DNA from: Mycoavidus cysteinexigens
Lineage (GTDB): Bacteria > Pseudomonadota > Gammaproteobacteria > Burkholderiales > Burkholderiaceae
Length of the DNA stretch: 64,000 nucleotides
NCBI GenBank assembly: GCA_031963045.1
Contig: JASSUK010000042.1
Coordinates: forward strand, 1,030-65,029
Direction: 5' to 3'
Below the pieces are notes generated by a model. The model searched no databases, was not told where the DNA came from, and saw nothing but the letters and a program-made list of their open reading frames with translations. A program made the position numbers and the translations under genes. Numbering within the stretch: position 1 is the stretch's first letter; each line of letters begins with the position of its first letter. This document shows, in pieces, positions 37,529 through 59,811 of the stretch.

Positions 37529-37783
37529 TTATCTAGTGAGGGATTGTATATTCTGTCCACCTTTATCGACTAGCTGATGTTCACTTTGTTCAATAGCGAG
37601 TTCAACGGCTGCTTTCGAGGCTTCTTCCATCATGACCTTAGCTTCGTTTACTGCACCATCGAACATTCCACCACCACCACTACTATTACCACTACCACTA
37701 TTACTTCCTCCATTATTTTTATTATCAGAAGCATGAAATTTATTAAAATATTGCCTTTCTGGAAGGCTAGTGCTGTCACCCAT
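37529..37783 (-). CDS. small Gly/Ser-rich protein, paralog 1 (84 aa); putative T3SS pilus subunit or harpin-like secreted protein
   Basis: MGDSTSLPERQYFNKFHASDNKNNGGSNSGSGNSSGGGG-MFDGAVNEAKVMMEEASKAAVELAIEQSEHQLVDKGGQNIQSLTR. It sits in the hrpE-equivalent position of the Hrp2-like cluster. No Cys. Confidence 0.6.
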   Translation of the reverse strand: MGDSTSLPERQYFNKFHASDNKNNGGSNSGSGNSSGGGGMFDGAVNEAKVMMEEASKAAVELAIEQSEHQLVDKGGQNIQSLTR

Positions 37784-37939
37784 GGTTTTATCCAGTTTTT
37801 TTAAAAAACTTCGCTTTGGATTTGCATTTTGTGATAGGTTTTTCGCCGCTACATGCTAAAGAATATTATACAATTTTTGATTAGGAACCAAGAAGACCGA
37901 TATGTATAGTCTTCTTGGTTATGAAAATTTACTCTCATT

Positions 37940-38182
37940 TTATCGAGTGAGGGATTGCGTGTTTTCCCCACCTTTATTTGCTATCTGAAATTTACTTTGT
38001 GCAATGGCAAGTTCAACCGCTGCTTTTGACGCCGCTTCCATCATGGCCTTAGCTTCGTTTACTGCACCATCGAACATTCCACTACCACCACCACCACCAC
38101 TACTTCCTCCATTATCTTTATTATCAGAAGCATGAAATTTATTAAAATACGCTCTGTCTTGAAGGCTAGTGCCGTCACTCAT
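37940..38182 (-). CDS. small Gly-rich protein, paralog 2 (80 aa); putative pilus subunit or harpin-like
   Basis: MSDGTSLQDRAYFNKFHASDNKDNGGSSGGGGGSG-MFDGAVNEAKAMMEAASKAAVELAIAQSKFQIANKGGENTQSLTR. Conserved upstream TGGACAAAATCATG. Confidence 0.6.
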   Translation of the reverse strand: MSDGTSLQDRAYFNKFHASDNKDNGGSSGGGGGSGMFDGAVNEAKAMMEAASKAAVELAIAQSKFQIANKGGENTQSLTR

Positions 38183-38339
38183 GATTTTGTCCAGTTTTTT
38201 TTAAAAAACTTCGTTTTGTATTTGAATTTTGTGATAGGTTTTTCGCCGCTACATGCTAAAGAATATTATGCAATTTTTGGTTAGGAACCAAGAAGACCGA
38301 TATGTATAGTCTTCTTGGTTATGAAAATTTACTCTCATT

Positions 38340-38576
38340 TTATCGAGTGAGGGATTGCGTGTTTTCCCCACCTTTATTTGCTATCTGAAATTTACTTTGT
38401 GCAATGGCAAGTTCAACCGCTGCTTTTGACGCCGCTTCCATCATGGCCTTAGCTTCGTTTACTGCACCATCGAACATTCCACTACCACTACTACTGCCTC
38501 CTCCACTATTACCACCACCACCACCACCAGGTTTAGGCTTGCCAGGTTCTACAATTTCTGTTGATACTAGAGCCAT
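38340..38576 (-). CDS. small Gly-rich protein, paralog 3 (78 aa) with an unrelated N-terminus; putative pilus subunit or harpin-like
   Basis: MALVSTEIVEPGKPKPGGGGGGNSGGGSSSGSG followed by a C-terminal half identical to paralog 2. Start set at 38576 because TGGATAAAATCATG matches the upstream context of paralogs 1 and 2; the track start at 38639 is probably too long. Confidence 0.6.
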   Translation of the reverse strand: MALVSTEIVEPGKPKPGGGGGGNSGGGSSSGSGMFDGAVNEAKAMMEAASKAAVELAIAQSKFQIANKGGENTQSLTR

Positions 38577-56616: not shown

Positions 56617-56693
56617 GGACTTTGCTTATGGTAGTTACAAGCAGATTTTCAGGAGGTATTGGTAAAGAGGCTAGGCATAACAATAAGTAGAGG

Positions 56694-57533
56694 GTGGTAG
56701 TGGACAGTATACAAAATATGATGAATTTGCATGAATCATTCAGCAATTTCATTTTAACTATGGCGCTATGCAGCCTGCGCATTGGGATTGCTTTTCTCAT
56801 TATTCCCGTGATGGGCGAGCAAGTAGTTCAGGGACTCAATCGCACGGTTATCAGTATGTTGCTGGCGAGTTTCGTGGCTTATGGTCAATCTATTGGCGCG
56901 CTTCAACTAACGCCCATAATGGTCATATCCATTATGGCTAAAGAAGCCATTTTGGGACTTATCTTTGGTTTTTGCGCATCTACGGTATTTTGGGTTGCAG
57001 CCAATGTGGGCTTTCTTATCGATGACTTATCTGGTTTTAATAATGTGCAGGTGAGTAACCCAATGCGTAGCGACACGAGTACGCCTACTTCCTCTTTGTT
57101 ATCCCAGCTTGCAATTACGGCATTTTGGGTGCTAGGTGGCATGATGTTTTTGCTGGGAGCGCTCTATCAGTCTTTTCAATGGTGGCCGATTTTAAGCATA
57201 CAGCCCGAGGGGCTACCTATACTTGAATCCTTTGTGCTGAGCTATACAGACTCCCTTATGGAAATGACTGCAAAGTTAGCTGCACCGATGATGCTGATTT
57301 TGGTTATGGTCGATTTTTCTTTTGGTTTTTTGGCTAAAGGTGCAGAGAAAATTGATACGATGTCTTTAAGTATGCCCGTAAAAGGCGCTATGACCTTATT
57401 ATTATTAGCTATTTTTATCACCATTTTTATTAGCCAAGTCCGATCACAGCTTTCATTGCAAGGCATAGCAGGAACAATTCATTCCTTGCGCCCAGAAAAT
57501 AAAGAAGAGGCAAAAAGCACCAATAAGCACTAA
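56694..57533 (+). CDS. sctT: T3SS export apparatus protein SctT (HrcT/FliR family)
   Basis: Polytopic membrane protein with the LRIGIAFLIIPVMG N-terminal block typical of the FliR family. The GTG start at 56694 or ATG at 56718 are both possible. Confidence 0.9.
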   Translation: MVVDSIQNMMNLHESFSNFILTMALCSLRIGIAFLIIPVMGEQVVQGLNRTVISMLLASFVAYGQSIGALQLTPIMVISIMAKEAILGLIFGFCASTVFWVAANVGFLIDDLSGFNNVQVSNPMRSDTSTPTSSLLSQLAITAFWVLGGMMFLLGALYQSFQWWPILSIQPEGLPILESFVLSYTDSLMEMTAKLAAPMMLILVMVDFSFGFLAKGAEKIDTMSLSMPVKGAMTLLLLAIFITIFISQVRSQLSLQGIAGTIHSLRPENKEEAKSTNKH

Positions 57534-57984
57534 TAAGCACGTATGGTTTTTCGTGATACTTATCTATATACCTTGTGTTTTATCGCCCCATCTATATGGG
57601 TGGGGCGATAAAAATCCCACAGTCAGCCTATTTTTCCTCGCTACCCCATCAAATTACAGCGATTTCCTTTCATTGGACGTTATCTCTCACGGTAATGCAA
57701 TGTAAATGGCTTTGTTGCGGGCTACTCAGATTTTTACATACTGGTAAAAAAATGAGAATTCTTGAAAGCATTGCCCAGATATTTTGAGTGTTTATATCTA
57801 TCTCCATCATCCTACTATTTCGTCGGCTTGATAAATCCTTTCCTGGGCTTCTTTCTGGGTTTTTTCTCTGGAACGACACAGATCGGTATGGGCCCGTATT
57901 TTTATTTTTTTTGAAGACCTGTTTTGAACCTGTTCTCAAGCAGGAGACAAACGGTCGTTATTTGATGGGGATGGTTTAGTAAAA

Positions 57985-59811
57985 ATGAAATTTTTGGGTA
58001 CCATCTGGTCTGCTATTGGCCTGAGTCTCGCGATATTTGTAGCAGGAATATGTCCTGCGCAAGCAGCAACTGTTCCATGGAAAAAAGAGAAAATTCACTA
58101 TTCAGTAGAAAGTAAGCCGCTCAAAGATGTATTGCGCGACTTTGCAGCAAGTCAAGGTATTGCAGCTACTATTGCACCGAATGTAGATGGCATGGTGAGT
58201 GGCAAATTTAATATGTCTCCTCAGGCTTTTTTGAGTGCACTCTCTTCTACTTTTGGATTTACTTGGTTTTATGACGGTACTTTGCTAGATATTTCTGCGG
58301 CAAGTGACGTTAAAAGCACGCTGATTTCAATGCAATACGGCAGCATGGAAGATCTGCGTAGCGCGCTTGATCGCATAGGATTATCGGATAAACGCTTTCC
58401 TATTGTGTATGACGATGTACAGCATACTGCGATGGTAAGTGGTCCAGCTCATTACGTACAGCTGGTATCTAATGTAGCGCAAAATGTAGATGGCAATGCA
58501 GGTAAAGATGCAGGCACACAAGTTCGTATTTTTAAGCTTCGCCACTCTTCAGCAACGGATCGCATCGTAACCGTAGGTGGCAATACCGTGAATGTGCCAG
58601 GTGTAGCCAGTGTATTGCAGAGCTTATTTAGCAACTCACGAAGTTCTGCACAAACTTTACTATCACCCAGCATCGTAAGAGCGAATTCAATGCTCGATGT
58701 AGACGGGCGCATACCTAATGGCTCTGTGAGTTTTGGCAATGGAGGTTTACTTCCTCCATTGCCTCCTGGTTATGCAGCAGGAGGCAACTTGGGTAGTGTT
58801 CCTGTCAATGACCAAGTAAACCAGTTATTTCCAGGCACGCCATCCCTCCCGGGCATGGGTGCAGTAGGCGGTATGGCAGGCACTCCCATGGGGCCAACCG
58901 GTCGTGTAGTAACTAACCCAACAGATAGTCTATTACCTGTAATTAAGGCCGATGCGCGGACCAATTCCATTTTGGTACGTGATGTACCCTCGCGTATGAG
59001 TCAGTACAAGCCACTCATTGATGAACTCGACGTTAAACCGCGTTTAATTGAAATCCAAGCTACGATGATTGAGATCGACAGTGGCGCATTAGACCAAATT
59101 GGTGTGGATTGGCGTGCGCACAATAGCCATGGCGATATCCAAACGGGTGATGGAAATAGACAGCAAAATGCATATAACGGCAATATAGATCCTAAATTTG
59201 GGACAGTGCCTAGTACAGGTGCTGTTCTTCCAGGAGGGGCCCTTTTAGCCACTCCAGCAGGGATTTCGATGACGGCTGTGTTAGGCGATGCAGGCCGATA
59301 TCTCATGGCAAGAGTCAATGCGCTTACACAAACCAATCAAGCACGCATTGAAGCAAGCCCCAAAGTTACGACGCTAGACAATATAGAAGCCGTAATGGAC
59401 AACTCGCAGCAAATGTTTGTACCTGTAACTGGCTATGCAGGTGGTAATCTATACAATATTTCAACAGGCATTTCGCTGCGTGTATTGCCTATGGTGGTTG
59501 AAGAAGAGGGCGCCACGCAGATCAAGCTTGAAGTTAATATTGAAAACGGCCAATTTGCGCCATCCGTAAATCAAACGCCAGGTGCCATTCCGATGGTCGA
59601 CACCAGCCAGATCAAAACACAAGCCTTTATCACGCAAGGCCAAAGTTTGTTGATTGCTGGTTACCAAAAGAAACACGATACAAAAGGCGTATCAGGCATT
59701 CCTCTTCTCTCCAAAATCCCATTTTTGGGCGCATTATTTCGCTATAAAAACGACACAAATTCACGGAAAGAACAACTTTTCTTGCTCTCTCCACGTGTGA
59801 TTGATCTATAA
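57985..59811 (+). CDS. sctC: T3SS outer-membrane secretin SctC (HrcC)
   Basis: Signal peptide MKFLGTIWSAIGLSLAIFVAGICPAQA. C-terminal secretin block (LLIAGYQKKHDTKGVSGIPLLSKIPFLGALFRYK). Confidence 0.92.
   Translation: MKFLGTIWSAIGLSLAIFVAGICPAQAATVPWKKEKIHYSVESKPLKDVLRDFAASQGIAATIAPNVDGMVSGKFNMSPQAFLSALSSTFGFTWFYDGTLLDISAASDVKSTLISMQYGSMEDLRSALDRIGLSDKRFPIVYDDVQHTAMVSGPAHYVQLVSNVAQNVDGNAGKDAGTQVRIFKLRHSSATDRIVTVGGNTVNVPGVASVLQSLFSNSRSSAQTLLSPSIVRANSMLDVDGRIPNGSVSFGNGGLLPPLPPGYAAGGNLGSVPVNDQVNQLFPGTPSLPGMGAVGGMAGTPMGPTGRVVTNPTDSLLPVIKADARTNSILVRDVPSRMSQYKPLIDELDVKPRLIEIQATMIEIDSGALDQIGVDWRAHNSHGDIQTGDGNRQQNAYNGNIDPKFGTVPSTGAVLPGGALLATPAGISMTAVLGDAGRYLMARVNALTQTNQARIEASPKVTTLDNIEAVMDNSQQMFVPVTGYAGGNLYNISTGISLRVLPMVVEEEGATQIKLEVNIENGQFAPSVNQTPGAIPMVDTSQIKTQAFITQGQSLLIAGYQKKHDTKGVSGIPLLSKIPFLGALFRYKNDTNSRKEQLFLLSPRVIDL

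Follow-up and report, generated by a model that had tools for sequence, protein, structure and literature searches.

A complete Hrp2-type type III secretion gene cluster in the genome of a probable Mycoavidus-type endosymbiont of fungi

The stretch of DNA analyzed here (the window, 64,000 nucleotides of contig JASSUK010000042.1, assembly GCA_031963045.1) carries, between positions 37529 and 59811, a complete and intact cluster for a non-flagellar type III secretion system (T3SS), which belongs to the Hrp2 family and is organized in two divergent operon blocks. We consider it very probable that this is a functional, vertically inherited chromosomal Hrp2 cluster of a Mycoavidus-type endofungal Burkholderiaceae bacterium. 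The cluster is complete in its secretion machinery, is under purifying selection, is present throughout the genus, and is accompanied elsewhere in the genome by homologs of its regulators and chaperone and by a spacing-specific set of promoter boxes.

Gene content and family of the cluster

Open reading frame (ORF) listing and Pfam and NCBIfam profile searches recovered the whole core set (SctC, D, J, N, Q, R, S, T, U and V, together with SctL) as full-length ORFs, each matched by profiles, as well as the accessory families specific to Hrp2, i.e., HrpB1, HrpB2, HrpB4, HrpB7 and HpaP (PF09613, PF09487, PF09502, PF09486 and PF09483), all of which lie above the Pfam gathering score. The genes of the two blocks are listed below (window coordinates, strand, product and evidence; lengths in amino acids, aa).

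50038-50634, plus: HrpB1 (PF09613, 67 bits)
50748-51269, plus: HrpB2/SctI, inner rod (PF09487, 64 bits)
51331-52275, plus: SctJ lipoprotein, lipobox LSAC (PF01514; TIGR02544, 243 bits)
52290-53315, plus: HrpB4/SctK (PF09502, 83 bits)
53336-54703, plus: SctL (PF02108, PF06635; NF006574, TIGR02499)
54700-56079, plus: SctN ATPase, Walker A and Walker B intact (PF00006, PF18269; NF006575, 723 bits, above cut-off)
56116-56616, plus: HrpB7/SctO (PF09486, 77 bits)
56694-57533, plus: SctT (PF01311; TIGR01401)
57985-59811, plus: SctC secretin with signal peptide (PF00263, PF03958; TIGR02516, 500 bits)
48598-49674, minus: SctU, NPTH autocleavage motif intact at residue 265 (PF01312; TIGR01404)
46548-48605, minus: SctV/HrcV (PF00771, 701 bits; TIGR01399, 886 bits; trees)
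45345-46517, minus: HpaP/SctP, substrate-switch or ruler protein (PF09483; TIGR02557, 67.6 bits, cut-off 65)
43785-45113, minus: SctQ (PF01052; TIGR02551, 112 bits, above cut-off)
43151-43846, minus: SctR (PF00813)
42870-43130, minus: SctS (PF01313)
41926-42873, minus: 315-aa Ser/Thr/Lys-rich ORF in the hpaA position (position)
40876-41892, minus: SctD/HrpD5, inner-membrane ring (NF041525, 268 bits, E 1e-79, cut-off 300)
40591-40836, minus: 81-aa ORF in the hrpD6 position (position; neighbor of sctD throughout the genus)

Several of these products carry additions or have boundaries that deserve comment. Translation of SctJ is likely to begin at the ATG at 51451, which would shorten the listed ORF by about 40 codons. 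SctL ends in a disordered Lys/Glu/Pro-rich C-terminal extension of about 230 aa, the SctL of relatives being 303-348 aa long, and both HpaP and HrpB4 have long, acidic and disordered N-terminal parts. The 315-aa ORF in the hpaA position has no Pfam, NCBIfam or PDB sequence match, and it shares 55-69% identity with its orthologs in G003 and G004, the two closest genomes; its position makes it a possible secreted control protein. The ORF in the hrpD6 position matches no Pfam or NCBIfam family, and BLASTP against the ORF at the same position in Burkholderia alba returned no alignment. It has a second, 80-aa paralog on another contig (C16:88300-88542), which is preceded at 184 bp by a promoter box of its own, of the type described below.

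The family assignment was assessed with SctV trees, one careful maximum likelihood (ML) analysis and one quick tree, built from a genome-collection scan that yielded a broad set of SctV and FlhA loci with their organism names, from which alone the family labels of the clades other than Hrp2 are taken. In the ML tree, the SctV of the window falls in a clade with 100/100 support that holds HrcV of Xanthomonas sp. LMG 31884 and Burkholderiaceae proteins from Burkholderia, Paraburkholderia, Trinickia, Robbsia, Cupriavidus and Mycetohabitans, and it groups inside this clade with Mycoavidus cysteinexigens and congeners, as sister to Mycoavidus. The clades of Erwinia/Ewingella/Pseudomonas, Bradyrhizobium, Chlamydiae, Archangium and Achromobacter are all apart from it. 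The SctN tree agrees, with a support of 98 for the Hrp2 clade. A further genome (G009), considered as a Mycetohabitans-like Hrp2 comparison, was dropped since its SctV is merely 45% identical and hence not Hrp2.

The gene order tells the same story, as tblastn searches with each protein of the window revealed strict colinearity with the loci of Xanthomonas sp. LMG 31884 and B. alba. The original prediction, which had been made from the letters of the window and had proposed an Hrp2-type T3SS with Xanthomonas-like gene order, is therefore borne out on both counts: the SctV and SctN phylogenies and the Hrp2 accessory Pfam families place the system within Hrp2 and not outside it, the synteny holds when assessed by orthology, and all the genes it had listed are intact.

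A Burkholderiaceae host and probable vertical descent of the cluster

The assembly comprises 2.49 Mb in 56 contigs, with a GC content of 46.0% (42.7% for the contig and 42.2% for the cluster). The closest named relatives of its SctV are the proteins of M. cysteinexigens, Mycoavidus sp. B2-EB and 'Glomeribacter sp. 1016415' (71% identity), further SctV proteins at NCBI being 97%, 85% and 74% identical. The best named match of a 476-aa AraC-type regulator encoded elsewhere in the genome is also from Mycoavidus, and nadE, which lies next to the cluster (35707-37470), has its best named matches in Burkholderia, Paraburkholderia and Caballeronia (53-57%). The sole public sequencing run that holds the region in full is labeled 'fungus metagenome'. 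Taken together, the SctV, AraC and NadE matches and the run label indicate that the genome is that of a Mycoavidus-type Burkholderiaceae endosymbiont of fungi. Some nadE homologs that bear the labels Mortierellaceae or Mucorales, such as a 'hypothetical protein' of Linnemannia gamsii and one of Apophysomyces sp., probably come from endobacterial contigs retained in fungal assemblies.

This host changes how the surroundings of the cluster are to be read. It had been proposed that the WD40, HEAT and LRR proteins next to the cluster form a repertoire typical of a symbiont of protists or animals, and odd for a plant-associated T3SS. The domains are there, Pfam confirming all three and adding ARM, but with an endofungal Burkholderiaceae host they do not point to a protist or animal symbiont. 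Nor does the paradox of a plant-type system hold, since Hrp2 is the T3SS family already reported for fungus-interacting bacteria (PMC5282467), Burkholderiaceae among them, and T3SS genes have been reported in Mycoavidus, where the system of M. cysteinexigens is homologous to the hrp system of Mycetohabitans rhizoxinica (PMC5877345).

Hrp2-type SctV and SctD are present in all seven genomes of the genus. In G003 and G004 the cluster is contiguous and lies beside ppa-nadE, as in the window. In the more distant G005 (74% SctV identity), sctD-hrpD6 still adjoins nadE-ppa, the remainder being found about 0.8 Mb away after a split behind sctS. The same split occurs in G001 and G006, which together with G005 have the SctV and SctD most diverged from those of the window, and in GCA_031963005.1 the cluster is broken after hpaP. 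Because all seven genomes carry the system, the nadE-ppa junction is kept and the GC content of the cluster is like that of the contig, the cluster appears to have been inherited vertically from a Burkholderia-like ancestor. The contiguous, Xanthomonas-like order would then be ancestral for the lineage, other members having fragmented it.

Those cluster genes that could be set against G003 and G004 (sctU to hrpB2) have ratios of nonsynonymous to synonymous substitution rates (dN/dS) of 0.04-0.35, which indicates purifying selection. Synonymous divergence (dS) is at the same time high, with values of 0.34-1.4 in the cluster versus 0.16-0.21 in the flanking ppa and nadE; it is 2-6 times as high as in these flanks and in the core genome. 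Nucleotide identity to G003 is 83-85% for most of the cluster, 92-93% for the SctN and SctC segments and only 70% for the segment of a second HrpB1 gene (see below); outside the cluster, it is 95% for ppa-nadE and 92-96% for syntenic core blocks elsewhere. The fastest-evolving genes are this HrpB1 paralog, the ORFs in the hrpD6 and hpaA positions, HpaP, HrpB2 and a set of small pilin-like genes. This pattern suggests either that alleles have been exchanged between lineages or that exposed parts have diversified over a long time.

Synteny with the closest relative stops at 59965, just past sctC, and beyond this point two features were noted:

60550-61638: LRR gene (Pfam)
62706-62782: tRNA-Arg(TCT) gene, 2.9 kb beyond sctC

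The position of the eukaryote-like flanking genes is not conserved, even at about 95% core identity.

Regulators, chaperone and promoter boxes

The window holds no translocon, no HrpG/HrpX-type regulator, no gatekeeper and no HpaB, as had been stated from its sequence. A search of the whole genome for these missing parts was successful for the regulators and the chaperone, which lie together on another contig (C4), and unsuccessful for the HrpF/NolX translocon. Only two AraC-type genes exist in the genome, one of them Ada-like. The other (C4:60015-61445) encodes the 476-aa regulator mentioned above, which is HrpB/HrpX-like: its matches, which span most or the whole of the protein, are two AraC genes of B. 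alba (41-42%), one of which is on the hrp-cluster scaffold, and a Xanthomonas gene (40% identity, residues 54-476). Immediately upstream lies an ORF for an OmpR-type, HrpG-like regulator with a weak receiver domain (C4:59097-59942), whose Xanthomonas homolog is divergent from the gene matching the AraC regulator. The tandem pair on C4 and the divergent pair of homologs in Xanthomonas thus correspond to the hrpG/hrpX arrangement. An HpaB-type chaperone gene is found nearby (C4:52890-53345); its product shares 54% identity with the ORF in the hpaB position of B. alba and 49% with that of Xanthomonas, and has a weak CesT match. The same locus (C4:52890-61445) also holds a GNAT acetyltransferase gene and two divergent genes with promoter boxes, whose products of 175 aa and 1285 aa (the latter at C4:54414-58271) have no Pfam match.

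The motif TTCG-N16-TTCG, known as the plant-inducible promoter (PIP) or hrpII box, is a target of HrpB/HrpX in Ralstonia, Burkholderia pseudomallei and Mycetohabitans (PMC11261895). It occurs six times in the window, and three of these boxes are well placed:

49936-49959, plus: PIP/hrpII box (TTCG-N16-TTCG), 79 bp upstream of hrpB1
49787-49810, minus: PIP/hrpII box, 113 bp upstream of sctU
39571-39594, minus: PIP/hrpII box, 96 bp upstream of the HrpB1 paralog

Genome-wide there are 65 such boxes, of which 32 are intergenic, within the approximately 14% of the sequence that is non-coding. As many as 24 of the 65 are correctly oriented and located 20-220 bp ahead of an ORF, versus 0-4 for other spacings from N8 to N25; since this control keeps composition constant, chance is a very unlikely explanation. 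The aligned promoters follow the pattern TTCG(C/T)-N15-TTCG(C/T), with a -10-like element about 31 nt downstream. The genome thus appears to encode group II regulation, in which HrpG and HrpX/HrpB act on PIP/hrpII boxes, and the boxes are likely to be regulated by HrpB itself.

The genes behind the boxes are mostly orphans with effector-like N-termini rich in Ser, Pro, Thr and Asn. Ten of the products were scanned with Pfam, and eight had no match, the other two being a dual-specificity phosphatase and an ankyrin-repeat protein; the 1285-aa product encoded on C4 is an additional candidate effector. These two genes, and one that lies close to the window, are:

C35:143662-144948: PIP-box gene, dual-specificity phosphatase with the motif HCKGGMGRTG
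C43:96124-98163: PIP-box gene, 679-aa ankyrin-repeat protein
C53:70080-71768: PIP-box gene, 5 kb beyond the end of the window

Boxes with one mismatch were also considered and set aside, as the window holds no excess of them (37 versus 47.7 expected) and imperfect boxes are not callable from sequence alone. One of them, at 30691-30714 on the minus strand (TTCGTTTTAT...TTACG), lies 113 bp upstream of an orphan 488-aa ORF (29112-30578); its first half is identical to that of four genuine boxes, and it may be an imperfect PIP promoter.

A second HrpB1 and a triplicated pilin-like gene

The third promoter box of the cluster precedes a group of genes that ends next to nadE:

38930-39475, minus: second HrpB1_HrpK paralog, 181 aa (PF09613, 85 bits; TIGR02561, 75 bits, below cut-off)
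38664-38834, minus: 56-aa ORF between the HrpB1 paralog and the pilin-like genes (ORF only)
38340-38639, minus: pilin-like paralog 1, 99-aa ORF, true start probably internal (repeat paralogy)
37940-38182, minus: pilin-like paralog 2, 80 aa (repeat paralogy)
37529-37783, minus: pilin-like paralog 3, 84 aa, with a Gly-rich N-terminal and a helical C-terminal part (75% identical to the 80-aa paralog)

The HrpB1 paralog, which heads this pilin-like operon, shares 54% identity with its G003 and G004 orthologs, and its matches to PDB sequences are at chance level. A 400-bp repeat underlies the pilin-like genes, which are three paralogs in tandem; independent Logan contigs break within it, and depth there is 2-2.7x. 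The products of these genes have no Pfam or NCBIfam match and are hypervariable; the 80-aa paralog has matches of only 34% identity in the two closest genomes and a weak match to a small ORF in the hrp cluster of B. alba. They may be subunits of the Hrp pilus. The small pilin-like genes had been noticed before; their triplication and the adjoining HrpB1 paralog had been missed.

Proposed function and alternative explanations

In the working model that we propose, the HrpG-like OmpR-type protein and the 476-aa HrpB/HrpX homolog encoded in tandem on C4 would activate the TTCG-N16-TTCG promoters. Three of these promoters would drive the cluster, namely hrpB1 to sctC, the operon or operons from sctU to hrpD6, and the operon of the HrpB1 paralog and the three pilin-like genes. 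The proteins they encode would assemble into an export gate (SctRSTUV), an ATPase complex (SctN/L/O/K/Q) and rings (SctD/J/C), complemented by the inner rod HrpB2, the periplasmic HrpB1 and an Hrp-type pilus. The change of substrate class would depend on HpaP and on the NPTH site of SctU, and the HpaB-type chaperone from C4 would pass on the effectors. About 20 other PIP-box genes, including those of the dual-specificity phosphatase and the ankyrin-repeat protein, are likely to encode the substrates, which would presumably be delivered into the fungal host.

A number of observations weigh against this picture. No HrpF/PopF/NolX homolog (PF05819) was found in this genome, in its six congeners, in a member of another genus of the same family (G007), in G009 or in B. 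alba; a first search had matched no control genome, and the search was validated on Xanthomonas, where it scored 630 bits beside the hrp cluster. Neither is a SctW gatekeeper recognizable for this cluster, the sole SctW of the genome belonging to a second T3SS on contig C43. Among the Hrp2 accessory proteins, only HpaP passes its NCBIfam equivalog cut-off and most others score below theirs, so that they must be seen as divergent members of their families. What speaks for the pilin assignment is the size and position of the small genes, their rapid evolution and a single weak match (E=0.007). No public RNA-seq run holding the pilin-like region was found. Finally, the splits of the cluster in several relatives could be a first step of decay.

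Some of these points would fit an eroding relic of a free-living ancestor, in which translocation has been lost and the cluster is breaking up in shrinking genomes, as the lack of NolX/HrpF, the breaks after sctS (G001, G005 and G006) and after hpaP (GCA_031963005.1) and the lack of RNA runs with the region might suggest. Yet every core gene is full length with its catalytic and processing motifs kept, dN/dS values are low, regulators and chaperone are retained, and 24 spacing-specific boxes would not persist without HrpB function. Moreover, B. alba, which is free-living and has a large genome, likewise lacks NolX, so that this absence is not a sign of decay, and the absence of PF05819 from the Burkholderiaceae genomes searched means that this type of translocon is not universal among the Burkholderiaceae members of the Hrp2 family. 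We therefore regard a relic as quite improbable. Even less credible to us is a genomic island recently acquired from a plant-associated Xanthomonas, Ralstonia or Burkholderia by an unrelated intracellular symbiont. The tRNA-Arg gene 2.9 kb past sctC, the variable flanks with the loss of synteny at 59965, and a divergence from the closest relative of 15-17% over most of the cluster versus 4-8% in the syntenic core are what one would expect of such an island, but the trees of SctV and SctN follow the relationships of the organisms, nadE independently assigns the genome to the Burkholderiaceae, the system is found in every genome of the genus, the nadE-ppa/sctD-hrpD6 junction is kept in a deeply diverged congener, and the GC content of the cluster matches that of its contig.

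The machine might also work and be directed at another eukaryote, such as amoebae, nematodes or plant roots, or serve only in horizontal transmission. Hrp2 systems classically act on walled plant cells, the fungal target proposed here is inferred, and the second T3SS could allow a division of labor. The fungus metagenome as source, the endohyphal relatives and the homologous Mycetohabitans system, which acts in a fungal symbiosis (PMC5282467), speak against it, and we find this possibility unlikely. A functional Hrp2 system of an endofungal bacterium, inherited with its chromosome, accordingly remains the explanation we favor.

The second non-flagellar T3SS (C43:190639-203861) has affinities to SPI-2/Ssa-Esc systems and comprises SctU, T, S, R, Q, N and V, a SepL/SctW-type gatekeeper, an SsaK-like SctL, an SsaJ-like SctJ, SctI and DUF1039; no sctC or sctD was found within this locus. 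Two FHIPEP genes are present in each of the seven genomes of the genus. In the window itself, a 521-aa orphan protein (32948-34513, minus strand) has two adjacent, strongly hydrophobic segments (residues 225-263), a hairpin topology also found in T3SS translocators and Inc-type proteins. Its gene is not preceded by a PIP box; in G003, a DNA segment of 73% identity lies on the same contig, at its far end.

A bolder proposal, which we consider possible but rather doubtful, is that the Hrp2 machine delivers proteins without an HrpF/PopF/NolX translocon by means of an unrecognized pore-former, and that the cluster is moreover a hotspot of allelic exchange or diversification. Candidates for such a pore-former are an orphan PIP-box protein or the 521-aa hairpin protein. 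If this were true, the fastest change, in the pilin-like proteins, the HrpB1 paralog, HpaP and the hpaA-position protein, could reflect an arms race with host immunity.

Comparison with known systems and significance

The nearest functional counterpart is found in Mycetohabitans (Burkholderia) rhizoxinica, the endosymbiont of Rhizopus microsporus, where, as far as PMC5282467 relates the work of Lackner et al. (2011), mutants of sctC and sctT survive more poorly in the fungus and the host does not sporulate. Both bacteria are endofungal Burkholderiaceae with an Hrp2 system and a SctV in one 100/100 clade, and both have an HrpB-type regulator and TTCG-N16-TTCG boxes before effector genes, candidate effectors in the present case; in Mycetohabitans the hrpII box precedes effector genes (PMC11261895). 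Their SctV proteins are about 65% identical, the genome described here is smaller and more AT-rich (46% GC), and function is shown by mutants there and inferred here.

The hrp cluster of Xanthomonas (LMG 31884) shares the order sctC-T-(B7)-N-L-(B4)-J-(B2)-B1, divergent from U-V-hpaP-Q-R-S-(hpaA position)-D5, as well as HrpG- and HrpX-type regulators, the PIP box and the HpaB chaperone (49%). It differs in having an HrpF/NolX translocon gene beside the cluster, for which this genome has no counterpart, and its SctV is 58% identical. Here, by contrast, hpaB, hrpG and the hrpX homolog lie together away from the cluster, with the regulator genes in tandem and not divergent, and an extra HrpB1 paralog and the triplicated pilin-like gene are present. 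The HrpB regulons of Ralstonia solanacearum and of T3SS-2 of B. pseudomallei (Cunnac 2004; Lipscomb and Schell 2011, as summarized in PMC11261895) have the same box before hrp operons and dispersed candidate effectors and share an AraC regulator of about 477 aa; the regulon predicted here from sequence consists of candidates that are nearly all orphans.

M. cysteinexigens B1-EB and strain AG77 represent a sister lineage (SctV 71% identical), for which an Hrp2-type and a second, Gammaproteobacteria-like T3SS have been described (PMC5877345; PMC5282467), and the same pairing is seen in the same-genus genomes searched. In the three congeners most diverged in SctV and SctD the break lies behind sctS, whereas in this genome and the two nearest to it the cluster is whole and lies beside ppa-nadE.

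Hrp2 in fungus-associated Burkholderiaceae is thus already established, and the cluster is a new, well-preserved example that leaves our knowledge of T3SS families unchanged. The extra HrpB1 paralog, the pilin triplication, the tails of SctL, HpaP and HrpB4, the off-cluster hrpG-hrpB-hpaB locus and the raised divergence are variations and not a new mechanism. Of wider interest is the lack of a recognizable translocon, which extends across the whole Burkholderiaceae branch. For the Mycoavidus lineage, the cluster offers a clean and complete Hrp2 reference copy with what appears to be the ancestral contiguous layout and with off-cluster regulators and chaperone, and the predicted HrpB regulon of about 24 promoters provides a list of candidate effectors by which the bacteria may settle inside fungal cells.

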